Assembly: GCA_036006425.1 (NCBI GenBank) | Contig: DASYPQ010000022.1 | Span: forward strand, 337,938 to 401,937 | Direction: 5' to 3' | DNA from: Planctomycetota bacterium | GTDB taxonomy: Bacteria > Planctomycetota > UBA1135 > GCA-002686595 | Length of the DNA stretch: 64,000 bases | The notes under the pieces: model-generated | Told to the model about the DNA's origin: nothing | The model's database searches: none | Seen by the model: only the letters and a program-made list of their open reading frames with translations | Translations under genes and position numbers: made by a program | Shown: positions 7,433 to 60,699 of the stretch, one piece after another | How the letters are laid out: each line of letters opens with the position of its first letter | Position numbering within the stretch: position 1 is the first letter of the stretch

Positions 7433-10400
7433 TCAGGGCAGCCAGCTCACTCGGTACGCGTTCGACGAGTTGAACGTTCCACCCGGAGGAGTCGGGCAGA
7501 AGGTCGCGCTCGGGTCGCGGTAGTACGTCTGGTAGATGCGGATCTGGCCCGCCTGGATCGTGTCGCCGAGTGCGGCGGAACGCGCCGACACCGACGGCTC
7601 GGCGCCCTGCGGCGCGACGACGACGCCGCCGCTCGCGCTCTTCGCGTACAGCCTCTTCAGCGATCCGCCCGCGCAGCGCAGACCGTCGCCGAAGTGCACC
7701 GGCGCGATCTCCAGGTTGCCCTGGAGGAAGATCGTGAACGCAGTCGGGCGCTCGCCCGAGGCCGTGAACACGAGCGTGTCGGCGGAGAGACTCGGCGTTC
7801 CCGTGACCGTGAGCTGCGCTCCGCCGCTGCCGCCCGAGTTCTCGCAGCCGTGACCGGCCGCGCCGTTGTTCGCGCACGGGCAGGCGGCGCCGGTTCCGTC
7901 GCCGAAGCAGAACGGAGTCATTCCCTGCTCGCATTCGTCGGGGATTCCGTTGCCGTTCGAGTCGATGCTGGTGCCCCCGGTGATGTCGCACGAGTCCGGG
8001 ATCTGGTTCCCGTTGCAATCGGGCGCACCCTGAGCGATCGCGCAGGCGTCGCCGACGTGGTCGCCGTCGCAGTCCTGCTGGCCCGGATTCGAGAGGTTCG
8101 GGCAGTTGTCGCACGCGTCGCCGACACCGTCGCCGTCCGCGTCCTGCTGGCCGGGGTTCGCTACGCCATCGCAGTTGTCGATGCAGTCGGCGACGCCGTC
8201 GCCGTCCGCGTCCGTGTCGGGGACGCCGCACCCGCACTGGCCGGGCGAAGTCTTCAGCGGATCGTTCGGGCAGCCGTCGATGCAGTTCGCGACGCCGTCG
8301 CCGTCCGTGTCGATGTCCGGGACTCCGCAGCCGCACTGGCCCGGAGCGATCTTGTTCGGATCGTTCGGGCACCCGTCGTTGCAGTTCGCGACACCGTCGC
8401 CGTCGCTGTCCGTGTCGGGCACGCCGCAGCCGCATTGGCCGGGCGCGATCTTCGCCGGATCGAAGGGGCAGCCGTCGCTCGAGTCCGGCGTGCCGTCGTT
8501 GTCGTCGTCGGAATCGCACGCATCGCCCAGCGCGTCGCCGTCGTTGTTCGCCTGGTTCGAGTTCGCGATGAACTGGCAGTTGTCGGCGCCGTCCGGGACG
8601 CCGTCGTTGTCGTCGTCGGAGTCGCAGACGTCACCTTGCGCATCCCCGTCGTTGTTCGCCTGGTCGGGATTGGCGACGTTCGGGCAGTTGTCCGACCCGT
8701 CCGGGATCCCGTCGCCGTCGCTGTCCTGGCTCGCGGCGTGGTAGAGGATCTCGACGTCGTCGATCGCCCAGCCGCCGAGCTGCAGACCGCCGTCCGTGCG
8801 GAGCTGGAACTCAAGCTGCGCCGCGGAGTTGTTGTCCGCGAGCGCGCCGAGCTCGACTTCCTGCGTCGACCAGCTCGTGTCGAGGACGTGCGAGCCGGTC
8901 GGGTTCGTCCACGCCTGCACGCCGTTGACGAGGATCGGCGACTGGTCGTAGATCCCCTGCTCGACCGTCAACCAGCGCTTGAAGCGCAGGCGCGTGCCCC
9001 ACTTCGCGCTCAGGTTGATCGTCGGCGAGCGCAGGCGGTTGTGCACGTTCGCACCGTACGCGCCGAGCGGAGTGGAACCGCTGATCCCGAGGTCGTTCGC
9101 CCAGCAGCGCGTCGGGCTCGAGGCGGACGCGGGGTCGCTCCACGCAACACCCTGCGAGGAGCCGCTGCGTCCGGCGGGGGCGCCGTGCTGCCAGTCGTCC
9201 TCCGAGTTGCTCGTGTCCCCGTAGGTCGCGTGCGTCCAGCCGTTGTCGTTCGCGGTCTCGAAGTTGTCGAGGTAGGTCGACGTCAGGACGCCGACCGCGA
9301 AGGCGAGCGTCGTGCCCGGAGCCCCCGTGGGGAAGGTGACGGTGTGGCCGCCGCTGTCGGTCGCCGTCACGTAGTAGTCGATGCGCGCTCCGCCGAGCTG
9401 TCCCGGGATCGACGCCTGGTAGACGTTGCCGCCCTGGTTCGCCATCGCGAGGGAAGTGAACGCGGCGTTGTTGCGGCGGTAGCGCAGCGTCGTCGCCGTC
9501 AGCGGCGGCGAACTCTGCGCGACGATCGTCGCCGACACGACGTAGGGGCCGGTCTCGTTCGAGGTGTCGGGCAGGTCGGTGACGTTCGTGATCGAGATCG
9601 TCGGCAGCGTGAACCCGGGGAAGCCCTGGTCGCGGAATCCGGAGTCGATGTCGGTGAAGTGCGGCGTCCCGTTGTTGATGTTGCCGTCGTTGTCGTCGAG
9701 CGTCAGCCACTGCGTCTCGATGATCGAGCGGATCTGCGTCTGGTTGTAGCCGTTCATCCAGCCCAGGAAGATGTTGTTCGCGATCAGGTCCCCCGCCGCG
9801 TTGCCGTTCGTGACGTTGAGGCGCGCGCGGATCTTCCAGGCGGCGCCCATCCACGGCTCGCCGTCGGCGTGGACCTCGCCGTAGCAGGCCGGGCAGCAGT
9901 CGCCGCAGAACATGCGCGTGTTGTTGCCGTCGCGCACGTTACAGCCCGTGCCGCAGAAGTCCTGGCCGCAGATCGGAGTGTCGTACGAGTACATCGACCA
10001 GACGTCGGCGTTGCCCTCGCCCATACCGTCGCCGCCATTGCCCGTGCTGTACCGGTCGTTGAGCCAGTGGCCCATCTCGTGCGCGATGACGGTCGAATAC
10101 GCCGTGTTCGGGCAGTTGCCGCCGGCGGCGTAGAAGTTGAGCGAGCCGCCGTCGTAGAACGCGTTGCAAGTCTGGGCCAGGTTGACGTTCGCCGTCGCGA
10201 CGAAATCGGCGGTGGCGTCGGCGGGATTGATGGAGCGGACCCAGTCGCGCAGGTGGTTCACGCCGATGAACGCGTTCGCCTGCGAGGTCACGGTGCCCGG
10301 AGCGGCGGGGTTCATCGTGATCGGGTTCGCCTGGTTCGGCTGGAGCGTCTGCGTCAGCGTGTAGTTGGCGCCCGCGGCGTTCAGGACGTTGTTGAACGTC

Positions 10401-11454: not shown

Positions 11455-13695
11455 ATGCGCGCCGTGCTCGTCTACTTCGGCGTCTTCCTCGTCGCCCTGT
11501 CGGGGTTGATGTTCGAGATCGGGCTCACGCGGATCTTCTCCGCGACGATCTGGTACCACTTCGCGTTCGTCGCGATCTCGGTCGCGCTGCTCGGCTGGGG
11601 CCTCGGCGGACTCGTGATGCAGCAATGGAAGCGGCGCTGGCAGCCGACTCTCGACGGCGCCGCGTGGCTCTCGCTCGCCTACGCCGCGTCGATCCCGCTG
11701 TGCCTCGGCCTCATCGTGCGGTTCCCGTTCCGGCAGGAGCTCTTGCCGCTGTACTTCTGCGCGTCGCTCCTCCCCTTCCTCCTCGGCGGGATGGTGCTCT
11801 CGGCGGCGTTCGACATCGGCAGGCGGAATGCGCCGAAGCTGTACTTCGCGGATCTCACGGGGGCGTCGCTCGGCGCGCTCGCGGTCACGTTCCTCCTCTC
11901 CTGGCTCGGAGGCGAGACCGCGGTGCTCGCCGTGGCGCTCGCGCCCGCCGTCGCCGCGGCCTGTTTCTCGCCGAAGCGCATCGCGATCGCGTCGATCGCC
12001 GTCGTGATCGTGGGAGCGGCCGTCGCCGTGAACGAGCGCACCGGCCTCTTCCGCATACACAGCGCGCCGACGAAGGGGATGTACCAGCATCTCGCCGCGA
12101 ATCCGGGCACTTCCGTCACGCAGACGGGCTGGAACGCCTACTCGCGCATCGACGCCGTCGAGGGTTTCGAGAAGCCGTACCTCGCGCGCCTCTACATCGA
12201 CTCGGACGCGTGGACGAACGTCCTGCGCGCGGAGGTCGAGACGGATCGCGTGCACCCGATGCGCACCTGGTACCGCGCGCTCCCCTTCCAGCTCACCCGC
12301 GAGCCCGAGGTGCTCGTCATCGGTCCGGGTGGCGGCTCCGACGTGCGCGTGTCGCTCGCCTCCGGCGCGAAGCGCGTCACCGCCGTCGAGCTGAACCCTT
12401 TGATGCTCGAGTTCGTGCGCCACTACGGCGCCGCAGCGGGGAACCTGTACGACCTCCCCCGGGTCGACGTGTTCCTCGGCGAAGGACGCAACTACGTCAG
12501 CCGTTGCGACCGGAAGTTCGACGTGATCTTCCTCGGATTCGTCGACTCGTGGGCGTCGGTGTCGTCGGGCGGGCTCTCGCTCTCCGAGAACTACCTGTAC
12601 ACGGTCGAGGCGTTCCGCGCGTACTACGACCATCTCACCGACGACGGAATGCTCGTCATCCTGCGTTGGGGCATCGACATCCCGCGCCTCGTCACGAACT
12701 CCGTGGCGCTGCTCGGCGCGCCCGACGCGTCGTCGCGGATCGTCGCGCTGCTCGAGAAGGAGCACGGGCCCGGCGATCCGCCGCAGATGACGTTCATGCT
12801 CAAGAAGCGCCCGTTCACGGAGAGCGAGACGAAGGAGATCCACGAGTCGTGGACGTCCGCGCTGCCGGTGATCGTGCCCGGGCGCCACGTCGAGCCGCCG
12901 TACGACGGGCTCTTGTCGGGCGCCGTCTCGCTCCCGCAGTTCGCCCGCGACGCGCGCGACATCGTCGATCCCGTGTTCGACGACAGCCCCTTCTACTTCG
13001 CGACCGAGCGCCCGATCGGGCTCCCGCCGATCATCACGAAGGCTCTGGTCGAGCTCCTGGCGATCGGGCTGGCGCTGTTCGCGGTCTTCGCGTGGCGCGG
13101 CCGGCCGAAGCACGGCGGCTCGAGCTCCTACACCGCGTCGCTCGCCTACTTCGGCTGCCTCGGATTCGGATTCATCGCCGTCGAGCTCTCGCTGATGCAG
13201 CGCCTGATCCTCCTCCTCGGGCACCCGATCTTCACGCTCGCGGTGCTGCTCTTCACGCTGCTCGCGTCGAGCGGCGTCGGCAGCTGGATGAGCGGACGCA
13301 TCTCCGTGCGGCGCGCGTGCATCACGGTCGCCGTGCTCGCGCTGCTCTACACGTTCGCCCTGCCGCCGCTCGTCGTCCTCCTGCTCCCGCTGCCGCTCGC
13401 CGCGCGGATCGCGGCGACGGTCGTGCTCGTGGCGCCGCTCGGGTTCGTGATGGGCATGCCGTTCCCCCAGGGCCTCCGCAGCGCGGGCCGCGGGCCGCTG
13501 CCGGCGCCTCCTTTCTATTGGGGGCTGAACGGGATCATGAGCGTCGTCGGGTCCGGATCGACGATGCTGATCGCCGTGACGCTCGGATTCCGGGCGGCGA
13601 TGCTCGCCGGAGTCCTCTGCTACGCGATCGCCGCGTGGGCGTCGAAGCGCGTCTCAGAGGCAGAAGTCGACGTGCAGCCCGTTGGTCAGGCCTAG
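11455..13695 (+). CDS. polytopic membrane protein with central spermidine/spermine synthase-like methyltransferase-fold domain
   Basis: N- and C-terminal multi-TM regions flank VLVIGPGGGSDVRVSLASGAKRVTAVELNP...FDVIFLGFVDSW...LTDDGMLVI (SpeE-like Rossmann fold). Confidence 0.7.
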   Translation: MRAVLVYFGVFLVALSGLMFEIGLTRIFSATIWYHFAFVAISVALLGWGLGGLVMQQWKRRWQPTLDGAAWLSLAYAASIPLCLGLIVRFPFRQELLPLYFCASLLPFLLGGMVLSAAFDIGRRNAPKLYFADLTGASLGALAVTFLLSWLGGETAVLAVALAPAVAAACFSPKRIAIASIAVVIVGAAVAVNERTGLFRIHSAPTKGMYQHLAANPGTSVTQTGWNAYSRIDAVEGFEKPYLARLYIDSDAWTNVLRAEVETDRVHPMRTWYRALPFQLTREPEVLVIGPGGGSDVRVSLASGAKRVTAVELNPLMLEFVRHYGAAAGNLYDLPRVDVFLGEGRNYVSRCDRKFDVIFLGFVDSWASVSSGGLSLSENYLYTVEAFRAYYDHLTDDGMLVILRWGIDIPRLVTNSVALLGAPDASSRIVALLEKEHGPGDPPQMTFMLKKRPFTESETKEIHESWTSALPVIVPGRHVEPPYDGLLSGAVSLPQFARDARDIVDPVFDDSPFYFATERPIGLPPIITKALVELLAIGLALFAVFAWRGRPKHGGSSSYTASLAYFGCLGFGFIAVELSLMQRLILLLGHPIFTLAVLLFTLLASSGVGSWMSGRISVRRACITVAVLALLYTFALPPLVVLLLPLPLAARIAATVVLVAPLGFVMGMPFPQGLRSAGRGPLPAPPFYWGLNGIMSVVGSGSTMLIAVTLGFRAAMLAGVLCYAIAAWASKRVSEAEVDVQPVGQA

Positions 13696-15717
13696 GCTCG
13701 CCTGCGCCTGGACGTCGCGGAACACCGCCTGGTAGTGGAGCTCCGTGCCCGCCATCCCCGGCGTCACGTGGATCGGGATCGTCGCGCTCCCCGTCGCGTC
13801 GAACTGGAACGTGCTGACGCGCGTGAGCGGACTCGCGAGGTAGAGGAACGCCCCCGCGAACGGCGTCGTCGCCGGGCCGTCGCTGCTGAAGAGCACGGCG
13901 AGCACGCCAGCCTTCGCGTTCCAGATCTCCACCGCGAAATCGTTCACGGCGACCGTCGGCGAGCCGCTGGAGAAGAGACGTGGGTACCCGCCTGCCGCGA
14001 GCCGCTTCGAGACGCCGTAGGGAACGGGCGAGCGGCACGCCCCGGCCACGAGGTCGATCGTCCGCGTGCCCATGAGGACGGGCGCGCTCTTCCCGGCGAA
14101 GACCCACTGGTCGTACGCGAGCTGTCCGAGGTTGTCGGTCGTGTCCGTGTCGCGGATGAACTCGATGTACTCGCGCGACGTCGTCTGATGGTACACGTCG
14201 ACGACGGCGGTGACGGCTCCGGCTGGCGCCGTGTAGAGCGTGTCGTCCCAGTACTGCTGCTCCTCGACGACGACGCCGACGGGCTTCGCCTGGACCGAAT
14301 CGAACGCGGCGTTGCTGAAACCGCGCGGCGGGATCCGGTTGTCGAGGACGGTGGTGTTGTTCAGCGTGAAGTGGAAGCTCGCGCCCTGCGGCACTCCGGT
14401 CGCGGCCGCCATCGCCGCGTCGAGGCCCTGCCGGATCTCGTACACCTTCGTGTCCGCGGTCGTCAGCGTCGCGGTCGCGGAGTCGTAGGCACCGCGCTCG
14501 CCCACGAGCGCCCCCTGGGCATCGAGGAAGCGGACGTGGATCCACATCCGCCGCCCCTCGCCGTAGCCGGTCGGCAGCTTGTGCCCGCTCTGGTTCACGA
14601 TCCGCACGCCGAGATCCGTGCCGATGGTGTAGAGCTCGAGATCGAGCGCGCGCGCGAGCATGTCGGCGTTGCGCGCGTGCGCGTCGGCGACCGACTGCGT
14701 CGAGAGCCCCGACTCGCTGTCGGGGTAGAGGTTGCGGACGGCGTCGAGCACCCACGAGTTCGCGCCCTGGAAGTCGTGCAGCGGGAGGTCCGTCCTCACG
14801 GCACCGCCGAGCACGGGTTGGCACGCCGTGCCCGTCGTCTTCGGCATGTGGCAGTCCTGGCACGTGCTGACCGTCGGCGCGGTGCCGCCGAAGCGTCCGT
14901 TCGTGTCGATCGGCGCCTGCGCGTAGACGCTCTGCTCCCACTCGCCGAACGTGCGCTCGATCGGGAACTCGTCCCGCTTGTCGTGCGTGGGATGCTGCGC
15001 GTGGAAGGCGTTCAACGCGTAGGTCCCGTCGGGCTGGCGCGAGAACTGCGGATTGCTGACTTCGTGGCACGTGGCGCAGAGCAGCGACTCGCGGTGGAAG
15101 GGCGACGGCAGCCAGTCGTGCAGGAAGAAGTTCGGCCCGAGGTCGAACGGTCCGCGGCGCACGTCGGCGGGATCGACGACCATCTGGCCGTTGCCGATGC
15201 TGAACGGGACGAGCGGGAGCGCCGCGAGGATCTGCTGGTCGATCGGCGGGCTCGCGCCGGCCTCGTAGAACGGATCGACGAGACGGTGGCAGACGTGGCA
15301 GTTCGTGCCGTCGAAATCGCCCTGCGCGTTGTCGAGAGCTCCGCCGTCCGGCTGACCGCGTCCTCCGAGGAACCCGCCGGGCGCGTGGCAGCGGAGGCAC
15401 AGGTAGCCCGCGCCGTTCATGTCCTGGTTCGCGATCGCGAGCGTCGCGCGGAACACCGGATCGCGGATGGACTGCGCCATGAGACTCGCGGCCCAGCGCG
15501 TGTACGGCTCCTGGTCGACGTCGTAGCCGCCGTGGCAGACCTGGCAATTCGACGACGGCAGGATCGGCTGCGCGTTCGGATCCGTGAGGCTGCTGCCGGG
15601 CTGGCGGAAGTCGCTGATCGAGGTCGGCAGCGGCAACGAGGAGACCGCGTGCGCGGCGGCGAACGCCAGCGCGGAGAGGACGACGGCCGACGGAGCGAGG
15701 AGGCGAGGGGAACTCAC
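13654..15717 (-). CDS. secreted multihaem (five CxxCH) cytochrome c with non-haem C-terminal beta-rich domain
   Basis: Signal peptide MSSPRLLAPSAVVLSALAFAAAHA. Haem motifs CQVCH, CLRCH, CHVCH, CATCH, CQDCH. Its 3' end overlaps the convergent upstream gene by 42 nt. Confidence 0.75.
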   Translation of the reverse strand: MSSPRLLAPSAVVLSALAFAAAHAVSSLPLPTSISDFRQPGSSLTDPNAQPILPSSNCQVCHGGYDVDQEPYTRWAASLMAQSIRDPVFRATLAIANQDMNGAGYLCLRCHAPGGFLGGRGQPDGGALDNAQGDFDGTNCHVCHRLVDPFYEAGASPPIDQQILAALPLVPFSIGNGQMVVDPADVRRGPFDLGPNFFLHDWLPSPFHRESLLCATCHEVSNPQFSRQPDGTYALNAFHAQHPTHDKRDEFPIERTFGEWEQSVYAQAPIDTNGRFGGTAPTVSTCQDCHMPKTTGTACQPVLGGAVRTDLPLHDFQGANSWVLDAVRNLYPDSESGLSTQSVADAHARNADMLARALDLELYTIGTDLGVRIVNQSGHKLPTGYGEGRRMWIHVRFLDAQGALVGERGAYDSATATLTTADTKVYEIRQGLDAAMAAATGVPQGASFHFTLNNTTVLDNRIPPRGFSNAAFDSVQAKPVGVVVEEQQYWDDTLYTAPAGAVTAVVDVYHQTTSREYIEFIRDTDTTDNLGQLAYDQWVFAGKSAPVLMGTRTIDLVAGACRSPVPYGVSKRLAAGGYPRLFSSGSPTVAVNDFAVEIWNAKAGVLAVLFSSDGPATTPFAGAFLYLASPLTRVSTFQFDATGSATIPIHVTPGMAGTELHYQAVFRDVQAQASLGLTNGLHVDFCL

Positions 15718-15777
15718 GCCAGGCCGGATTCTCCCCCCGCGAATTCGCTGGAGGAAGGGGGAAAACGAGAGGCCGCG

Positions 15778-48224: not shown

Positions 48225-49316
48225 ATGAGCAGGGAAGTTCTCGTGACGCTCGCGCTCGCGCTCTGCGCGGCCCCTCTGTCCGCGCAGAACTTCAACCTCG
48301 ACTTCGGCGAGCCCGCGAACCAGCCGCCTGCGACGTACGCCGCTGCCGCGGGTCCTGGGTACTGGAACTCGATCCGCGCAGAGAACGGGCACGACTACCC
48401 GCTCAGGGACCTCGCCGGCAACGCGACGGGCGTGCACGTGTTCACGAGCGGCTCTGCGGCGCCGATCACCTCGACCGATCCGAGCGTCACCGGCGACGAC
48501 GCCCTGCTGATGAACGACGGCACGATCACCTACGACAGTTCCTTCGGCAGCAACTTCTACGTCGAGGGCCTCGCGCCGGGGACCTATGACCTGATCGTCT
48601 ACGCGTGGCGCCCGGACGTCCCAGCACAGATGGCGGAGACGTTCGTCGACTACACGATCGGCCTCTACGACACGGGTGGCGCGTGGCCCGGCGGACACGT
48701 CCAGGGGATCACCTACGCGCGCTTCACCGTGACCGTGTTCGGGAACGGCGAGATCGGGGTGCACTCCGGCCTCGCGGGCAGCGCGGATCCCGCGATCGGA
48801 GCTGTCTGCAACGGCATGCAGCTGCGAAGGATCGAAGAGCAGACCCCATTCTGCTTCGGCGACGGATCGGGGAGCGCCTGTCCGTGCGGCAACAGCGGTG
48901 CGCCCGGCCACGGCTGCGAGAATTCGTCCTCGACGGGAGGAGCGCTGCTCACTTCGTCCGGGACGACGATTCCCGACGAGCTCGTGCTCGCTGCGACCGG
49001 CGAGAAGCCCACGGCGCTCACGATCTTCCTCCAGGGAACGGCGTCGGTTGCTGCCGTCCCGTACGGAGACGGTTTGCGCTGCGTGTCCGGATCTCTCAGG
49101 CGCCTCTTCGTCCGCAATGCGAGCGGCGGTGCGGTCTCGGTTCCGCAAGGAGTCGATCCTTCGATCACCGCGCGGTCGTCCCAGCTCGGCGATCCGATCC
49201 CGGTGGGCGCGACGCGCTTCTACATGACCTACTACCGCGATCCGGACGCATCGTTCTGCCCGGGCCCGAGCGGCGGAACGTTCAACGCCTCGAACTGCCT
49301 TTCGGTCCACTGGTAA
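48225..49316 (+). CDS. small secreted protein: beta-rich N-domain plus Cys-rich C-terminal module
   Basis: Signal peptide MSREVLVTLALALCAAPLSA. The last 154 aa, CFGDGSGSACPCGNSGAPGHGCENS...YYRDPDASFCPGPSGGTFNASNCLSVHW, match the protease and the 58617 gene. Confidence 0.7.
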   Translation: MSREVLVTLALALCAAPLSAQNFNLDFGEPANQPPATYAAAAGPGYWNSIRAENGHDYPLRDLAGNATGVHVFTSGSAAPITSTDPSVTGDDALLMNDGTITYDSSFGSNFYVEGLAPGTYDLIVYAWRPDVPAQMAETFVDYTIGLYDTGGAWPGGHVQGITYARFTVTVFGNGEIGVHSGLAGSADPAIGAVCNGMQLRRIEEQTPFCFGDGSGSACPCGNSGAPGHGCENSSSTGGALLTSSGTTIPDELVLAATGEKPTALTIFLQGTASVAAVPYGDGLRCVSGSLRRLFVRNASGGAVSVPQGVDPSITARSSQLGDPIPVGATRFYMTYYRDPDASFCPGPSGGTFNASNCLSVHW

Positions 49317-52676: not shown

Positions 52677-55514
52677 ATGACTCCCGGACGCGACACCGAA
52701 GGCTGGCAGGTCACCCCTCTCGAGTCCTTCCCTCCGATGGAGAAGTGGGACGACTGGGTCGAGTACGACGCCGCGGCCTGGCCGCGCAAGGTCGAGAAGC
52801 ACTACATGCTCGTGCCGACGACCTGCTTCAACTGCGAGGCGGCGTGCGGGCTCGTCGCGTACGTCGACAAGGAGACGCGCGCGATCCGCAAGCTCGAGGG
52901 GAATCCCTTCCACCCCGGCTCGCGCGGCAAGAACTGCGCGAAGGGTCCGGCGACGCTCAACCAGATCCAGGATCCCGGCCGCATCCTCTATCCGATGAAG
53001 CGCGTCGGTCCGCGCGGCTCGGGGAAGTTCGCGCGCGCGAGCTGGGACGAAGCCCTCGACGTCTTCGCCGCGGCGATCCGCAAGGCGATCGTCGAAGGAC
53101 GCAAGACCGAGGTCATGTACCACGTCGGCCGACCGGGCCACGACGGCTACATGGACCGCGTCCTCCAGAGCTGGGGCGTCGACGGGCACAACAGCCACAC
53201 GAACGTCTGCTCCGCGGCCGCGCGACTCGGCTACGCGCTGTGGAGCGGCGCCGACCGTCCGTCGCCCGACCACGAGAACGCGAAGTTCATGCTCCTCCTC
53301 TCGTCGCACCTCGAGACGGGGCACTACTTCAACCCGCACGCGCAGCGGATCATCGAAGGCAAGATGCGCGGCGCGAAGCTCGCCGTCGTCGACGTGCGCC
53401 TCTCGAACACGGCTTCGATGGCCGACTTCTGGCTCGCCCCGTGGCCCGGCACCGAGGCGTTCCTCCTCCTCGCGATGGCCCACGTCATCCTCGAGGAGAA
53501 GCTGTACGACCGCGCGTTCCTCGAGACCTGGGGGAACTGGCGCGAGACGCTCGAAGCGCTCGCTCCGGGCTCTCCGCCCAGCGTCGACGCGTTCCTCGAG
53601 GCGCTGCGGAAGCACTACGCGCGCTTCACGCCCGAAGCCGCGGAGGCGGAGTGCGGCGTCGCGAAGGAGACGGTCGTCGCCGTCGCGCGCGAGATCGGCG
53701 CCGCGGGCAGCGCCTTCGCCACGCACGTCTGGCGCAACGCGGCCTCGGGCAACCTCGGCGGATGGCAGGTCGCGCGCGCGCTCCAGTTCCTGTGTGTGCT
53801 CGTCGGATCGGTCGGCGCGAAGGGCGGGACGAACCTGAACACGCAGGACAAGTTCGTGCCCCCGCCGTTCCTGAAGCCGCCCGCGCAGGGCGTGTGGAAC
53901 GAGCTCCTCTATCCGCGCGAGTGGCCGCTCAGCCACCACGAGCTCTCCTACCTCCTCCCCCACTTCCTCCTCGAAGGCCGCGGCAAGCTCGCCGCGTACT
54001 TCACGCGCGTCTACAACCCGGTGTGGACGAATCCGGACGGGATGATCTGGGAGCAGGTGCTGCGCGACGAATCGAAGATCGAGCTTCACGCGGCGCTGAC
54101 GCCGACCTGGAGCGAGACGGCGCAGTACGCGGACTGGGTGCTGCCGATGGGCCTCGGCGCCGAGCGGCACGACTTGATGAGCCAGGAGACGCACGCGGAG
54201 AAGTGGATCGGCTTCCGCCAGCCCGTCGTGCGCGTGATGCGCGAGCGCCTCGGCGAGAAGGTCGAGTGGACGCGCGACGCGAATCCCGGAGAGGTGTGGG
54301 AGGAAGACGAGTTCTGGATCTCGCTCTCGTGGCGGATCGACCCGGACGGCTCGCTCGGGATCCGCAAGTACTACGAATCGCCGTACCGGAAATCGCAGCA
54401 GATCACGGTGGACGAGTACTACCGCTGGATCTTCGAGAACACGGTGCCCGGGTTGCCGGAGGAGGCGAAGAAGAAGGGCCTCTCGGCGCTCGAGTACATG
54501 CGGCGCTACGGGGCGTTCCTCGTCGAGAAGGAGACCTGGGAAGGCCACGCGAAGAAGCTCTCGGCCGCGGAACTCGAGGCGGCGAGCGTCGACGAGGCGT
54601 CGAAGACCGTGACGAAGGCCGGGAAACCGATCGGCATCGTCGCCGACAGCGCGCCGCGGATCGGATTCACGACGCCGTCGCGGCGCCTCGAGTTCTTCAG
54701 CAAGACGATGGTCGAGTGGGGTTGGCCCGAGTTCGCGCTGCCCGAGTACATCGAGAGCCACGTGCACCGGAAGCATCTCGATCGAGCCAAGGGCGAGTAC
54801 GCGCTCGTGCCGACGTTCCGGCTGCCGACCTTGATCCACACGCGGTCGGGCAACGCGAAGTGGCTGTACGAGCTCTCGAACACGAATCCGGTGTGGATCC
54901 ACCCGGAGGACGCGGAGCGGATCGGCGTCGAGACGACCGACCTCGTGCGCATCTCGACGCGGATCGGCCACTTCGTGAACAAGGCCTGGGTGACGGAAGG
55001 CGTGCGGCCGGGGATCGTCGCGTGCAGCCACCACCTCGGCCGCTGGCGTCTGTTCGACGACAACGGGACGGACAAGTGGGCGAGCTGCAAGGTCGCGCGC
55101 GAGGAGACGGCGCCCGGGAAGTTCCGGTTCAGACGCCTCGAGGACGTCGGGCCGTTCGAGAGCAGCGATCCGGACAGCAAACGCGTGTGGTGGAGCGACG
55201 GCGGTGTGCACCAGAACCTGACGTTCCCGGTGCAGCCGGATCCGGTGTCGGGGATGCACTGCTGGCACCAGCGCGTGCGCGTGGAGCGAGCGGGCGCGGA
55301 CGACCGGTACGGCGACGTCGAGGTCGACACCGCGAAGTCGATGGCGATCTACCGCGAGTGGGTGGCGCTGGCGCGGCCGGCGCCGGGGCCCGGCGGATTG
55401 CGGCGACCGCTGCACTTCGCGCGCGCGGTGCGGCCGGCGCCGGAAGCGTACCGTACGGAGCCAGAGCAGATTCTCAACGATTTCGGCCGGGCAGTGCCCG
55501 GTCGAAATCGTTGA
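52677..55514 (+). CDS. molybdopterin (bis-MGD) oxidoreductase catalytic subunit, no Tat signal
   Basis: FS0 cluster motif CFNCEAACG...NCAKG. Mo-bisPGD and C-terminal barrel regions. The last 20 codons and the TGA lie inside the 83-nt palindromic element. Confidence 0.85.
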   Translation: MTPGRDTEGWQVTPLESFPPMEKWDDWVEYDAAAWPRKVEKHYMLVPTTCFNCEAACGLVAYVDKETRAIRKLEGNPFHPGSRGKNCAKGPATLNQIQDPGRILYPMKRVGPRGSGKFARASWDEALDVFAAAIRKAIVEGRKTEVMYHVGRPGHDGYMDRVLQSWGVDGHNSHTNVCSAAARLGYALWSGADRPSPDHENAKFMLLLSSHLETGHYFNPHAQRIIEGKMRGAKLAVVDVRLSNTASMADFWLAPWPGTEAFLLLAMAHVILEEKLYDRAFLETWGNWRETLEALAPGSPPSVDAFLEALRKHYARFTPEAAEAECGVAKETVVAVAREIGAAGSAFATHVWRNAASGNLGGWQVARALQFLCVLVGSVGAKGGTNLNTQDKFVPPPFLKPPAQGVWNELLYPREWPLSHHELSYLLPHFLLEGRGKLAAYFTRVYNPVWTNPDGMIWEQVLRDESKIELHAALTPTWSETAQYADWVLPMGLGAERHDLMSQETHAEKWIGFRQPVVRVMRERLGEKVEWTRDANPGEVWEEDEFWISLSWRIDPDGSLGIRKYYESPYRKSQQITVDEYYRWIFENTVPGLPEEAKKKGLSALEYMRRYGAFLVEKETWEGHAKKLSAAELEAASVDEASKTVTKAGKPIGIVADSAPRIGFTTPSRRLEFFSKTMVEWGWPEFALPEYIESHVHRKHLDRAKGEYALVPTFRLPTLIHTRSGNAKWLYELSNTNPVWIHPEDAERIGVETTDLVRISTRIGHFVNKAWVTEGVRPGIVACSHHLGRWRLFDDNGTDKWASCKVAREETAPGKFRFRRLEDVGPFESSDPDSKRVWWSDGGVHQNLTFPVQPDPVSGMHCWHQRVRVERAGADDRYGDVEVDTAKSMAIYREWVALARPAPGPGGLRRPLHFARAVRPAPEAYRTEPEQILNDFGRAVPGRNR

Positions 55515-55535
55515 GAATCTGCTCTGGCTCCGTAC
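55453..55535. repeat. 83-nt near-perfect palindromic element, copy A
   Basis: GTACGGAGCCAGAGCAGATTCTCAACGATTTCGGCCGGGCAGTGCCCGGTCGAAATCGTTGAGAATCTGCTCTGGCTCCGTAC. One mismatch in a ~40-bp stem. Confidence 0.9.
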
Positions 55536-58474
55536 TACCGCAGCTCGATGACGGTCGGGGCGCGTTGCGCGCGATCGGGCCCGACCTCGACGGTCGCACT
55601 GCCGCGCAACCCGCTGTCCGTGCGCGCGTCGATGCGGAATCGACCGGCGGGGAGCACGAAGCCGAAGAGGCGTACTTTCCCGTCCTGCATCGCGGCCCGG
55701 AACCACGAGCCGTTGCGCACGACGACTTCACCGTGCTCGTCGCGAGCCTCCGAATCGAGCGTCGTCCACTGCGCGTCCGCGTCGGCGAACACGCAATCGA
55801 ACTCGAGCTGGAATCCTTGTTCGGTGTGGAGCTCCACGCGCGTCGTCACGCCGGACTTGATCTCGACCTGGTTCCCGCGGAGGAACCGGTCGCCGCCCCA
55901 TCCGAGATGCACGGTCCAGCTCCCCGGCTCGAGCGGGCGCGATCGGAAGACGTCTCCGTCGAGGACCATCTCCTCCGTCCCGTGTCCCTCCCGATCGAGG
56001 ACGGGCGGCCGGGTCGTGCCGAGCCCCGCGACCGGGATCTCGAGCAGGCCCGCCGCAGCCGGCTGGATGACGCCGACGTCCTCGGTCCCACCCGAGCGCA
56101 ACTCGAAGCGATCCGTCCGGAGCAGGGTCTGGCCCCCGCGCATGATGCGCAGGTCGTAGCGTCCCGCCAGGAGCGGGCCGTAGTCGAACGCGCCGGTGTG
56201 CGGGTCGAACTCGACGTAGCGACCGCTGTTGCTCGACTCCGGATAGCAGACGAGCTTGATGCCCGCAGGTTCACCGCCGTCCTCGCCGCGCAGAATCCCG
56301 CGGACGCGCGCGTCGGCGATGCGCGCGTTCTCCACGACGATCTCCACGTCCGTCGAGCCCGGTGCCGCGGCCTTGCGCTCGCCCCGCGGAGGAATCGGCA
56401 TCTCCTTGGGAGCGGAGGTCTGCACGTCGTACCGGTGATCGGCATCGAGGTTCGGGAGAACGAAGCGACCCTGCTCGTCGGTCTTCGTGTTTCGTGGATA
56501 CGCGTTGCCGTAGGGCACCGGCTGGCCGTACACGTTCCACCCGACGAGCGGATGTCGCTCGGTATCGACGATGCGCCCGGAAATCGTCAAGCCGGGATCC
56601 AGCGCGAGCTCGACGTGCGCCGTCTCGCCCGAGGTGCAACGCACGCGCGCGGTCGCCTTGCCGAGCTCGGTGTGCGTCGACACGCTCGCGTGCACCTCCT
56701 GCTCGCCGGACGCGACCCAACCGAGGTCGAATCGTCCGTCGGAGGCCGTCGTCGCGCGCGGCGGCGGGAACTCGTCGAAGTGCCAGCCGCCTCCCCACTC
56801 CGCGGCCGCGACGACGCGCGCGCCCGCGACCGGATGCCCTTCGCGGTCGACGACGCGCCCTTTGATCCTGGCGGGATCCTGGAGCACGACGTCGATCCGG
56901 TTCGCGTGATGCGTGCTCATTTCGACGGTGCCGTCCCAGCGCGGCCAGCCGCGAGCGGCGACGAACACGGGTTGACTGCCTTCGGGGAGCGCGCCGGCGT
57001 ACGTGAACCGACCCTCGGCGTCCGTCTCCACGGGGACCGGACTCGGGTTCTCGCCGCGCGTGCCGTCCGGCAGCTCGATGATGCCGCCGCCGCGCGCGCC
57101 GATCTTGACGAGCGCGCCGGCGATCGGGAGCCCGCGCGGATCGCGGACCGTTCCCTCGACGTCCCCTCCCGCGGCGCCGAGGTGCAGGACCGCGACCGCG
57201 TTTCCGTTCGGACCGAGCTGGAGATCCGGCATCTCGAGGATCGGAGAAGGAGTCCGGCCCGATGCGCGTGCCCCGATCCTTGCGTCGGACGGAAGTCCTT
57301 CGACGCGGAACGCGCCGTCGCGGCCCGCGCGTCGCAGGAAGTGGAACCGACTCGAAGGGAATCGGATCGTCTCGCTCCAGATCTCGGCGTCCGCGACGGG
57401 GTTTCCATCGGTGTCGAGCACGCAACCTTCGATCGCGACGCCTGCGGGGAGCATGAACTCGACCTCGCGCTCCGTCCCCACCGCGACATCGGCCGTGAAG
57501 CGTGCTCCACGGTCGACCCAGAGCGCAACCTTGCCGCCGAAGAGCGCGGGGAAGCGCACTCGACCGTCGGAATCCGTCCGACGGCGGAAGTACTCGTCGC
57601 GCGGCGCGGGATCGTTCGTGCAGGAGACGTCCATCGAGACGTCGTTCGCAGGCCGCCCGTCGGCCCACTTCAAGCGCACGACGAGCGCCCCCGTTTCGTT
57701 TCCGGACACCGCGGGAGCGCTCGCGGCCTCGCGATCCGGTGCAGCAGCGATCGCCAATCCCTCGGACGCAGCCACCGGCGGCGGCGCGTCGAGGACCGGC
57801 GCCGCGGCGACGGACGCCGACCGGATTCCGCGTTGCGCCTCCCATGGAATCGAACGCCATGCAACAGCCGCGAGCAGGACGACCACGACCGCGGCCACGA
57901 GCACCTTCTTCATGATCCCGACTCCTCCCGTCGCTGCGATCGGCAGGAGTGCGGCGAACCACGCTCCTCGATCTCCGTTGAACCGACCGTCGAGCCGCTG
58001 CCGCAGCTCGTGGATCGCGCGGTGGAGGCGCGTCTTGACCGTCTTCACGGGGACCCCGAGGCGCTCGGCGATCGCGTCGGGCTCGAGCCCCTCCCAGTAC
58101 CGCAAGGACACCGTCGTCCGGTACGGCTCGCGCAGCGCGAGCACGCATTCGAGCACCACGCGCGAGGCCTCGAGCTGCTCGAGCGCGGCGACGTGGGAGG
58201 GCTGACCCTCCTTGCGCGCGACCTCGCTCTCGCGCGCGTGCCTGCGGACGCTCGCGCGACGGCGATCGAGCGCGAGGCGCCGCGCGACGGTGCCCAGCCA
58301 ACCGCGCAGGGCCGAACGGCTCTTCGGCGGCCGCTCGAGCGCGACGACGAACGTCTCCTGGATCAGGTCCTCCGCATCGGCCTCGTCGCGCACGAGCGCG
58401 TGCGCGAGACGTCGCAGCGAACCTGCGTGCCGCGCGAGCTCGTCGGAATCGGCGAACCCCGCGGCGAGGGACAT
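55535..58474 (-). CDS. ECF sigma factor fused to a transmembrane helix and ~730-aa extracytoplasmic carboxypeptidase-regulatory-like repeat region
   Basis: ATG 58474 is preceded by GGAGGAAG. Region 2 DAEDLIQETFVVAL, region 4 EPDAIAERLGVPVKTVKTRLHRA, TM IMKKVLVAAVVVVLLAAVAW. At least five G.V.D..G.P.A.A.. Ig-like repeats follow. Confidence 0.75.
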   Translation of the reverse strand: MSLAAGFADSDELARHAGSLRRLAHALVRDEADAEDLIQETFVVALERPPKSRSALRGWLGTVARRLALDRRRASVRRHARESEVARKEGQPSHVAALEQLEASRVVLECVLALREPYRTTVSLRYWEGLEPDAIAERLGVPVKTVKTRLHRAIHELRQRLDGRFNGDRGAWFAALLPIAATGGVGIMKKVLVAAVVVVLLAAVAWRSIPWEAQRGIRSASVAAAPVLDAPPPVAASEGLAIAAAPDREAASAPAVSGNETGALVVRLKWADGRPANDVSMDVSCTNDPAPRDEYFRRRTDSDGRVRFPALFGGKVALWVDRGARFTADVAVGTEREVEFMLPAGVAIEGCVLDTDGNPVADAEIWSETIRFPSSRFHFLRRAGRDGAFRVEGLPSDARIGARASGRTPSPILEMPDLQLGPNGNAVAVLHLGAAGGDVEGTVRDPRGLPIAGALVKIGARGGGIIELPDGTRGENPSPVPVETDAEGRFTYAGALPEGSQPVFVAARGWPRWDGTVEMSTHHANRIDVVLQDPARIKGRVVDREGHPVAGARVVAAAEWGGGWHFDEFPPPRATTASDGRFDLGWVASGEQEVHASVSTHTELGKATARVRCTSGETAHVELALDPGLTISGRIVDTERHPLVGWNVYGQPVPYGNAYPRNTKTDEQGRFVLPNLDADHRYDVQTSAPKEMPIPPRGERKAAAPGSTDVEIVVENARIADARVRGILRGEDGGEPAGIKLVCYPESSNSGRYVEFDPHTGAFDYGPLLAGRYDLRIMRGGQTLLRTDRFELRSGGTEDVGVIQPAAAGLLEIPVAGLGTTRPPVLDREGHGTEEMVLDGDVFRSRPLEPGSWTVHLGWGGDRFLRGNQVEIKSGVTTRVELHTEQGFQLEFDCVFADADAQWTTLDSEARDEHGEVVVRNGSWFRAAMQDGKVRLFGFVLPAGRFRIDARTDSGLRGSATVEVGPDRAQRAPTVIELR

Positions 58475-58534
58475 GCGATGAGCTTCCTCCACCACTCCCG
58501 AAGACGCCACGGGGCGCCGCGGGACCTCGCGAAA

Positions 58535-58617
58535 GTACGGAGCCAGAGCAGATTCTCAACGATTTCGGCCGGGCAGTGCCCGGCTGAAATCGTTGAGAAT
58601 CTGCTCTGGCTCCGTAC
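58535..58617. repeat. 83-nt near-perfect palindromic element, copy B
   Basis: Identical to copy A at 81 of 83 positions. It differs only in the central CCCGG(TC/CT)GAAAT. Confidence 0.9.
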
Positions 58618-60443
58618 TACCAAAAGATCGCGACGCCGCTGCTCACGTTCCAGGTGTTCCCCGGCGGATTCGGGCAGAACGCCGGCGCCGCGTCGCGGTA
58701 CCAGGTCTGGTACCAGCGCATCGATCCCGGCGCGATCGGATCGCCGAGCGCGGCCGAACGCGCGCTGATCGACGGATCCCCGGCGCCCGGGTAGGCCGCG
58801 GCGCCGCCCGACGCGCTCTTCGTCCCGATCCGCTTCATCGCTCCGCCGACGCAGCGCACGCCGTCGCCGAACACGGCGCCCGAGGTCAGCACCACGTTGC
58901 CTTGGAGGAAGATGCAGAGCGAGGTCGAGAGCATCCCCGTTGCGGACAGCGTCACCGTGTCCGGGCTCGCGGCGCCCGCGGCGAGCAGCACGGCGCCTTC
59001 GCCGAGGATGTCGGAGTTCAAGCAGCCGTGTCCGGGCGATCCCGTGTTCCCGCACGGGCACGCCGTCGGGAGCGATCCGTCGCCGAAGCAGAACGTCTGG
59101 TAGAGGATGTTCGGCAGCTCGTACGCGCCCATGTCGACGATCGGGATCGTGCCGCTCCCGGTGTCCGCCGTCGCCGCCGCGTCCTCGAACCGCGGCGTGA
59201 GATCGAGGTCGAGCGTCGAGGTCGCCGGGACGGCCGCGTTGTTGCCCGCGTCCGCGCACGGCGACGACGCGCTCGTGTGGTAGTCGCCCCCGCCGGGATT
59301 CACGAGCAGCGGATCCGCGGAGATGTTGCCCGTGCCGCCGATCCCGCCTTGCACGCAGGAGTAGCTCACCGTGGTGTTGCCGCTGATCTGGTTCAGCGTC
59401 CCCTGCGCGCCGCCCGGACCCGTGTTGAGGTAGAAGATCGAGTTCGCGATCGTCGTCGCGCCGCCGCTCGCGAGCAGCCCCGCCGCCGCGTTCACGTTCG
59501 AGACGTTGCCGACGACGGTGCAGCCACGGATCGCCGGAGCGGAGCTCGAGGCGACGTAGATCGCGCCTCCACCGCCCGAGCCCGTCGAGGTGTTGCCGTG
59601 GAAGAGGCAGTCGTAGAGCTTCGTCGTCGAGCCGCTGAAGATCTCGACGCCGCCCGCGCGCTGCGCCGTGTTGCCCGCGAAGACGCAGCGGTGGAACTGC
59701 GCGGCGACGCCGTCGAACATGTCGAACGCGCCGCCAAAGGACCCGCCGACGTTCGTGAGGAACGAGCACTCGTAGAACTTCGGGCTGCTCTGGCGGATGT
59801 ATCCCGCTCCCCCGCCGAAAGTGCAGCGGTTGCCGATGACGCGGCAGCGCGTGAAGGTCGGGTTGCTGGCCGAGACGAGCAACAGTCCGCCCCCGCGGTC
59901 GTCGTCGGTCGCGGCCGAGCCGTTCGCGTTGCCGCCGGTGACGACGAAGCCGTCGAAGAGCGCGGTCGCGTTCGCGCCGTTGCCGCGCACGACGTGGTAG
60001 CTGTTCTCGCCGAGGTTGCCGCCGCCGTCGTCGCCCGCGAGGTCGCCGGTCAGCGTCGCGATGTTCACGGCGGGATCGCGTTGGCCGAGGGTCACCTCCC
60101 CGCCCGCGAAGCCGCCGTAGACCTCGACGCCGGTCTTCGTCACGAAGGACTGGGTCCGGTCCGAGCCGGCCGTGGGCTCGTAGGTCCCGTCGGCGACCCA
60201 GATCTGGTCTCCGGCCGTCGACGCCGCGAGTGCCGCCTGGAGGCCGCCGGATCCCTGGAACGCGTCGGCCCAGGTCGAGCCGTTGTTCCCGCCGCTGGCG
60301 AGGGACGCATCGACATAGAGGGTGCCCGCGAAGACCGGGCTCGCCGCGAGGACGACCCCGAGGGCCGCAAGGAAGCGGGAATGGAGCGCGGCGAGGGGTC
60401 GGGAGCGGAGGATCGCGGTGAGTCGGAAGGGATCGGAGCGCAT
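58617..60443 (-). CDS. secreted Pmp-like parallel beta-helix protein with Cys-rich C-terminal module
   Basis: Start at MRSDPFRLTAILRSRPLAALHSRFLAALGVVLAASPVFA. Repeats of the GGG(A/L).....S.P....C.F..N type. The last 157 aa are CFGDGSLPTACPCGNTGSPGHGCLNS...WYRDAAPAFCPNPPGNTWNVSSGVAIFW. Confidence 0.7.
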   Translation of the reverse strand: MRSDPFRLTAILRSRPLAALHSRFLAALGVVLAASPVFAGTLYVDASLASGGNNGSTWADAFQGSGGLQAALAASTAGDQIWVADGTYEPTAGSDRTQSFVTKTGVEVYGGFAGGEVTLGQRDPAVNIATLTGDLAGDDGGGNLGENSYHVVRGNGANATALFDGFVVTGGNANGSAATDDDRGGGLLLVSASNPTFTRCRVIGNRCTFGGGAGYIRQSSPKFYECSFLTNVGGSFGGAFDMFDGVAAQFHRCVFAGNTAQRAGGVEIFSGSTTKLYDCLFHGNTSTGSGGGGAIYVASSSAPAIRGCTVVGNVSNVNAAAGLLASGGATTIANSIFYLNTGPGGAQGTLNQISGNTTVSYSCVQGGIGGTGNISADPLLVNPGGGDYHTSASSPCADAGNNAAVPATSTLDLDLTPRFEDAAATADTGSGTIPIVDMGAYELPNILYQTFCFGDGSLPTACPCGNTGSPGHGCLNSDILGEGAVLLAAGAASPDTVTLSATGMLSTSLCIFLQGNVVLTSGAVFGDGVRCVGGAMKRIGTKSASGGAAAYPGAGDPSISARSAALGDPIAPGSMRWYQTWYRDAAPAFCPNPPGNTWNVSSGVAIFW

Positions 60444-60699
60444 GGGGTTCAGGGGGCAGGGGGTCGGGAGTGCGGAAGCGTCGGATGCTAGCACGCGCGC
60501 GCATCCGCGGAATGCGAACTCCTCCCCAAGCGGCCCGGATCGTGTGAATGAACCCGGTCATCCCCCTGAAAAACGTCGGGCTCGTCGCCCAGGATCGCGC
60601 GCGGAGCGCGTCGGGTGTTCGGTTTGCGAAAGGGCACTGCCTCGCGCTCCGCTTGGTCAGTATGGTTGCGCCCTATATCCACCCCAAAGGAGGTGTCTC

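Follow-up and report, generated by a model that had tools for sequence, protein, structure and literature searches.

A new C-terminal tail domain on exported proteins of Planctomycetota, proposed to be a sorting or docking signal

Introduction

Several described systems come close to the domain reported here or to its cargo. The type A C-terminal domain of T9SS (TIGR04183 / PF18962), known from Bacteroidota, is a terminal beta-sandwich that is carried once per Sec-exported protein on unrelated cargo, and a single genome encodes dozens to hundreds of such proteins. GlyGly-CTERM consists of a short motif and a transmembrane helix and is cut by an intramembrane protease. The chlamydial Pmp proteins are autotransporters in which the beta-helix passenger carries Pmp-type repeats. 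Rhombotarget A (TIGR04212; PDB 9CDV) is found at the cell surface and has been counted, like other GlyGly-CTERM proteins, among the substrates of type II secretion (PMC12643943, PMC5861075). MYXO-CTERM/myxosortase and PEP-CTERM/exosortase are built around C-terminal tags that are specific to a lineage and are carried by many surface proteins, and these tags are tripartite signals of roughly 25–35 residues.

The window analyzed here is a stretch of 64,000 nt from a Planctomycetota bacterium, whose genome (4.27 Mb, 90% complete) was also searched. An earlier note on this DNA had described a Cys-rich C-terminal module, the third copy of its kind in the window, at the end of a Pmp-like beta-helix protein. 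We describe this module as a previously unnamed tail domain with the behavior of a sorting or docking signal at the C terminus, and it fits none of the known classes when tested by sequence and architecture.

Results

An exported beta-helix protein that ends in the module

The longest open reading frame of the beta-helix gene begins at a GTG at position 60494 (58617..60494, minus strand, in the ORF list). The database gene call (P0001), which is 608 aa long and 100% identical to the window protein, starts at ATG 60443, as does the gene given in Table 1. Within the stretch predicted to be a signal peptide, residues 17–33 appear as a low-confidence N-terminal helix in the full-length AlphaFold model. 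The model of the whole copy-3 protein has a pLDDT of 87.4, and its cargo region is mostly above 90. Additionally, this cargo scores 41.9 bits against the Beta_helix family PF13229, well above the family cut-off of 25.9. Its nearest solved folds according to Foldseek include pectate lyase Pel9A (1ru4, E 2e-5), and rhombotarget A of Acinetobacter (A. baumannii; 9cdv/9cdu) is matched with E 3e-4 and a TM score of about 0.5. The model and the Foldseek matches therefore confirm the beta-helix as the predicted fold of the cargo.

The earlier description of the protein as a Pmp-like beta-helix holds in part. The PF13229 beta-helix match is significant. In copy 3, the Chlamydia PMP repeat reaches 14.7 bits, just short of the cut-offs of 20.6 (Pfam) and 15 (NCBIfam), and Pfam detects only Beta_helix and this sub-threshold repeat in the protein, with no autotransporter beta-barrel translocator. 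The same repeat model scores 35 bits in one homologue of the beta-helix cargo.

Just ahead of the C-terminal tail, as expected for proteins of NF041518 (choice-of-anchor Q, cut-off 25 bits), lies a conserved stretch that resembles this family. Copy 3 scores 10 bits, below the threshold, and its homologues score 19.6 (P0002), 22.5 (the Engelhardtia mirabilis orthologue), 27.5 (P0003, a co-orthologue) and 30.7 (the homologue from genome G208).

At the other end of the module, the TAG stop codon and copy B of an 83-nt palindrome overlap by 1 nt, much as the earlier note had stated that the two abut. The 141-nt stretch around this palindrome has a folding energy of -106 kcal/mol. At the syntenic locus L109, where the beta-helix gene and a molybdoenzyme gene are separated by 9 nt, there are no palindromes and no ECF-sigma gene, and the orthologue at the syntenic locus also terminates in W-TAG without a palindrome. 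Because L109 lacks them, the ECF-sigma fusion gene and the two palindromes (55453-58617) are seen as an insertion in the window's genome.

Table 1. Positions of the beta-helix gene, its parts, the module copies and the palindromes in the window
Feature	Position	Strand	Basis or remark
Exported beta-helix protein gene, 608 aa	58617..60443, including TAG stop	-	ATG at 60443; ORF list, translation checked
Predicted signal peptide, residues 1-39, MRSDPFRLTAILRSRPLAALHSRFLAALGVVLAASPVFA then cleavage before GT	60327..60443	-	Read from sequence
Predicted right-handed parallel beta-helix cargo, residues about 40-400	59244..60326	-	PF13229, AlphaFold, Foldseek
Conserved cargo end ...GTIPIVDMGAYEL, choice-of-anchor Q-like	59115..59282	-	NF041518 score, homologue endings
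Six-Cys module (type A), copy 3, 159 aa, residues 450-608, W-stop	58620..59096	-	Profile, AlphaFold
TAG stop codon	58617..58619	-	Final base G is first base of palindrome
83-nt palindrome, copy B, 32-nt perfect arms	58535..58617	.	In 106-nt gap before ECF-sigma fusion gene
83-nt palindrome, second copy	55453-55535
Module copy 1 (type A), on ~1300-aa protein with HEMGH metalloprotease motif and thrombospondin type-3 repeats	7436..7915	-
Module copy 2 (type A), on 363-aa protein	48849..49313	+
Fourth module copy, divergent, Cys-less, ends 707-aa ORF 13657-15777	13657..14181	-	Iterated HMM, E 3.4e-22

The module is a genuine domain

The beta-helix ORF ends in ...CFGDGSLPTACPCGNTGSPGHGCLNS...WYRDAAPAFCPNPPGNTWNVSSGVAIFW-stop, and both sequence and translation agree with what had been quoted for the third copy. 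Position 59090, originally taken as the start of the module, is the first Cys codon, and the full module begins at 59096. The window contains three six-Cys copies. Copy 3 shares 52–53% identity with copies 1 and 2, and these two share 62% with each other. All six Cys are aligned across the three copies with indels of 1–2 residues between them, and the variable spacing that had been reported by eye is borne out. The accompanying estimate, well under half identity beyond the motif blocks, holds approximately for copy 3, although overall identity is just above half. An iterated HMM revealed the fourth, Cys-less copy, which the earlier note had missed and which likewise terminates at the stop codon of its ORF. 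The product of this ORF has CxxCH-like motifs in its N-terminal part (...CQVCHGG..., ...CLRCHAPGG...) and may be a cytochrome c-type protein.

AlphaFold2 modeling of the module from a 57-sequence alignment gave a pLDDT of 93.6 and a pTM of 0.90. The predicted fold is a beta-sandwich of about ten strands with one helix and an N-terminal coil. In this soluble sandwich the protein terminus, ...NVSSGVAIFW, forms a beta-strand, and there is no hydrophobic helix. Searches of Pfam and NCBIfam with the three window modules and eight divergent copies returned zero matches at E values up to 10, and a profile search of PDB sequences with the module found nothing significant. Foldseek comparison of the module with the PDB recovered just generic FnIII/Ig sandwiches (best E 0.013, TM <=0.4), and neither Pfam nor the best Foldseek matches included a CBM or lectin.

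The Cys residues of the module come and go in pairs. Co-occurrence across copies, expressed as phi, is 0.96 for C15-C141, 0.77 for C25-C82 and 0.66 for C3-C13, which suggests that these pairs form disulfides. Such a pattern would fit an oxidising, extracytoplasmic location. Conservation extends to the polar motifs N27-S28, GDGxRC, YRD and NxS/T. The last of these is found at a fixed position, -12 or -10 from the C terminus, in 128 of 142 copies, compared with 14% of background windows. In copy 3 it corresponds to N150-V-S152 (window about 58638-58649). Because the N-x-S/T motif sits in the final beta-hairpin turn of the AlphaFold model, its role is probably structural. N-glycosylation through this motif was considered and rejected, since a genome search with a valid control found no STT3/PglB gene. 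The module is a genuine domain rather than a compositional resemblance.

Abundance, position and subtypes

A profile built from the three copies matched 124 places in the window's own genome, with E values down to 1e-89, and the proposal that the similarity is not merely compositional is thereby upheld. The iterated HMM matched 144 ORFs, and in 142 of these the domain ends 0–1 residues from the stop codon. No ORF has two copies (0/144), and the module is thus never tandem. Seventy-five copies end in W-x-P-stop and 24 in W-stop. With about 142 ORFs carrying it, the module is estimated to be present on roughly one gene in 25 of this genome.

By Cys content, the 144 matches include 106 six-Cys modules, 11 with C25 and C82 alone, and a few that are Cys-less. 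Comparison with hhalign shows the six-Cys and two-Cys forms to be homologous (probability 99.1%, E 5e-19), and the six-Cys module is therefore regarded as an elaboration, at the level of the family, of an older core.

Some members of this collection carry no cargo. At least six proteins in the genome comprise only a signal peptide and the module, which indicates an independent role for the module. A crude signal-peptide rule selects 109 of the 142 module ORFs (77%) but is too unspecific, since it also fires on 48% of control ORFs. For this reason, the case for export of the whole set is made from inspection and cargo type.

A search of a library of 1.84 billion representative proteins identified 16,791 clusters at E values up to 1e-3. 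At 1e-10 the number was 10,575, and both counts refer to clusters at 50% identity. All of the 150 library matches listed end <=2 residues from the C terminus. Every named carrier is a MAG of uncultured Planctomycetota, recovered from sludge, groundwater, lake or soil, with the single exception of one short 'Polyangiaceae' contig.

Across a sample of 401 Planctomycetota genomes, the two subtypes differ in range. The six-Cys form (type A) was found in 12, namely the window's own, 10 of the 12 other genomes of its family, and one elsewhere with a weak match. The two-Cys form (type B) was found in 56 genomes, including 11 of the 12 from the same family; it has a low copy number in the rest of the order and is present in several other families, for example in all eight genomes of family f25. 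Engelhardtia mirabilis (G397; preprint 10.1101/817700), a cultured member of the window's own family, belongs to the Saltatorellus clade, whose bacteria change shape and fuse cells. The two-Cys/Cys-less profile finds 13 matches in its genome, all of them divergent, and there are zero six-Cys copies. G208, also a member of this family, has essentially no module matches.

Conservation and exchange of the tail on related cargoes

The three window copies had been interpreted as old paralogous domains under selection, and this interpretation is supported by their 52–62% identity, by the 142 genomic copies in three subtypes and by the dN/dS value of the module. A syntenic locus from another metagenome encodes P0002, flanked by AhpC/redoxin and FMN reductase genes on one side and by molybdoenzyme, RtcB and UvrD genes on the other. 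P0002 is 70.6% identical to the copy-3 protein in the cargo and 76% identical in the module. For the syntenic orthologue pair, the Nei-Gojobori method gives a dN/dS of 0.33 in the module and 0.39 in the cargo, and both values are probably inflated by strong codon bias. The module is under purifying selection.

Whether orthologues keep the module on the same cargo had also been asked. The syntenic orthologue does, as do 39 of the 119 other best module matches, which have the same beta-helix cargo (40–71% identity) with the module at the C terminus. However, the E. mirabilis orthologue and the homologues from G208 and G138 do not. In E. mirabilis, a 620-aa ORF (L120, G397:C1:4764947-4769158) has a cargo 52% identical to that of copy 3 and ends in an unrelated, unannotated 133-aa tail (its last 133 codons, ...GATLAFQAAAIDLLTTGSPIEFSNMLVGTVAP). 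This tail was rejected as a homologue of the module (hhalign probability 0.3%) and has no Pfam match; it may represent another tail family. The G208 and G138 homologues, together with E. mirabilis paralogues, end directly after the conserved ...VDMGAYE, at a boundary that resembles the choice-of-anchor Q domain. Thus, on the same cargo the module is exchangeable for another tail or for none. Close homologues of the cargo lack the module and therefore fold without it.

The cargoes are diverse and typical of exported proteins. They include beta-helix, PD40, FG-GAP, thrombospondin type-3, M36 peptidase, endonuclease I, glucose dehydrogenase (GSDH), cupredoxin and RCC1 types. The 135 segments located immediately upstream of modules were scanned with NCBIfam and Pfam. 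The NCBIfam matches are to families whose names refer to a sorting tail, and they comprise T9SS-dependent M36 peptidase (four members), myxosortase-dependent M36 peptidase (four), rhombosortase-dependent M36 peptidase (three), MYXO-CTERM MtsC (six), and the choice-of-anchor families NxxGxxAF (four), B (two) and J (two). Cargo families that carry the module are therefore families that elsewhere bear T9SS, MYXO-CTERM or GlyGly-CTERM signals. In the Pfam scan, few cargoes were glycoside hydrolases. Thirty tail-bearing proteins, encoded on several contigs, belong to one paralogous PD40/TolB-like propeller family (repeat ...TNLVxGDTNGxxDVFxRDR...).

Search for a partner or secretion machinery

Enrichment analysis of neighboring genes in the window's own genome revealed no recurrent family as a partner beside module genes, and yielded only Ser/Thr-kinase-WD40 proteins, artefacts from antisense ORFs, and sulfatases, whose genes show enrichment (10/17, p 0.0014) at distances of up to 4 kb from a tail gene. 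Searches of the 90%-complete genome gave no match for SprA (TIGR04189), C25 peptidase (PF01364), the T9SS tail Por_Secre_tail (TIGR04183) or SLAM, and the control genomes were silent for all four as well. PEP-CTERM also had no match in the genome. A single ORF of the exosortase family (PF09721) is located outside the window, at C24:94869-95522, and scores 37.7 bits. Upstream of the module, no linker or cleavage motif is conserved beyond T-[SP]-F-C.

The genome has six secretin genes, and the N-terminal regions of all six were compared with 41 genomes of the order in a stricter first look that may miss weak matches. A dedicated secretin was rejected as the partner because none of the six tracks the module across these genomes. 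Secretins S2, S4, S5 and S6 are distributed order-wide and are present also in module-free genomes. S3 gives a weaker signal and is present also outside module-rich genomes, and S1 was seen, among the 41, in the window's genome only. Elsewhere in the genome, at C5:118611-124045, two adjacent genes encode lipoprotein secretins of ~875 aa with long TPR-like helical N-terminal regions. This pair is conserved order-wide, usually within about 10 kb on one contig.

Discussion

A portable tail for docking or sorting

We favor, with moderate confidence, the explanation that the module serves as a C-terminal tail, portable and independent of its cargo, which provides a common address for many exported proteins and acts in docking or sorting at the cell surface. 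The protein would be exported by Sec, after which its last ~155 residues would fold into the beta-sandwich in the periplasm. Three putative disulfides would lock the sandwich, with C25-C82 in the core and with C3-C13 and C15-C141 clamping the N-terminal knot. The tail would then be recognized by a shared envelope component, perhaps an outer-membrane protein or a surface glycan, and the cargo would be taken to the cell surface or retained there. Passage across the outer membrane could proceed via general channels, for which the six secretin genes would be available. We infer a surface location, and binding rather than cleavage.

A broader conjecture, offered tentatively and thought somewhat unlikely, is that the module and its sister tails mark an undescribed Planctomycetota system for sorting or attachment, with its own recognition machinery. 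This system would serve about 4% of the proteome in the Saltatorellus clade and would be a T9SS counterpart of independent origin.

Alternative roles for the module

It seems unlikely that the module is a secretion signal for a dedicated outer-membrane translocon, cleaved in the manner of T9SS tails and perhaps leaving the cargo covalently attached. In favor of this reading, the module is strictly terminal, is present in a single copy on about 142 proteins in the genome, occupies the same slot as T9SS C-terminal domains on matching cargo families, and is a beta-sandwich as these domains are. However, searches for SprA, Por_Secre_tail, C25 peptidase and SLAM gave no match (with controls silent in all four cases), no secretin co-varies with the module, and conservation of the upstream linker or cleavage motif stops at T-[SP]-F-C. 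Moreover, if the module were such a signal, then the proteins consisting of the module alone would be empty tags.

We are more doubtful that the module is a lectin- or CBM-like domain whose ligands are external polymers, particles or other cells, and not the envelope of the cell itself. Conserved polar and aromatic motifs on a stable, disulfide-locked beta-sandwich are compatible with ligand binding, free-standing module proteins exist, and many cargoes are adhesin-like or hydrolytic. Binding modules, though, are found at either end of proteins, internally and in tandem, whereas this module is never N-terminal, internal or tandem. CBMs and lectins are also absent from its best fold and sequence matches, and glycoside hydrolases are few among its cargoes.

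A role as a structural cap, or as an oligomerisation or stabilising domain that has nothing to do with addressing, is very unlikely. This role would agree with the compact, high-confidence fold that follows the cargo without a flexible linker. Nevertheless, the module is joined to dozens of unrelated folds, an unrelated tail can replace it, and close homologues of the same cargo occur without it and therefore fold without it. Finally, the notion that the similarity reflects composition or a chance Cys pattern in the absence of any domain is refuted by E values that reach 1e-89, by the profile-profile probability of 99.1% between subtypes, and by the pLDDT of 93.6.

A family of >16,000 clusters has no Pfam, NCBIfam or PDB entry. 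Its members label the likely surface proteome, and the tail could serve as bait for its partner. E. mirabilis offers a cultured strain for testing tail function, with its own divergent module matches and with a different tail on the orthologous cargo.

Comparison with known systems

Among described proteins, the chlamydial Pmp family resembles the copy-3 cargo in its beta-helix passenger with Pmp-type repeats. Pmp proteins are autotransporters, whereas the copy-3 protein ends instead in a 159-aa beta-sandwich and has no beta-barrel. Rhombotarget A is similar to copy 3 in the fold of its cargo (TM about 0.5) and in overall size (617 versus 608 aa). However, the GlyGly-CTERM tail is short and includes a helix, whereas the module is soluble, is 159 aa long and lacks any hydrophobic helix.

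The module also does not have the tripartite signature of motif, transmembrane helix and basic tail that defines PEP-CTERM, GlyGly-CTERM, MYXO-CTERM and LPXTG signals. MYXO-CTERM and PEP-CTERM tags resemble it in being C-terminal, lineage-specific and carried by many proteins, but the module is a folded domain. The cargoes of these systems overlap with those of the module and include MtsC-like thrombospondin type-3 proteins, M36 peptidases and choice-of-anchor families (preprint 10.1101/2023.06.07.544157, PMC11980579).

The T9SS C-terminal domain differs from the module in that the two have no sequence match, that the module has roughly double the length and up to three putative disulfides, and that T9SS domains are absent from its 50 best Foldseek matches. 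The T9SS core components SprA and C25 peptidase were undetected in the module genome, with the control genomes silent as well. Despite these differences, both are terminal beta-sandwiches carried once per exported protein and by large numbers of proteins per genome. Like the T9SS domain, the module is found at the extreme C terminus of many unrelated exported proteins (142/144), and the two share common cargo families such as the M36 peptidases.
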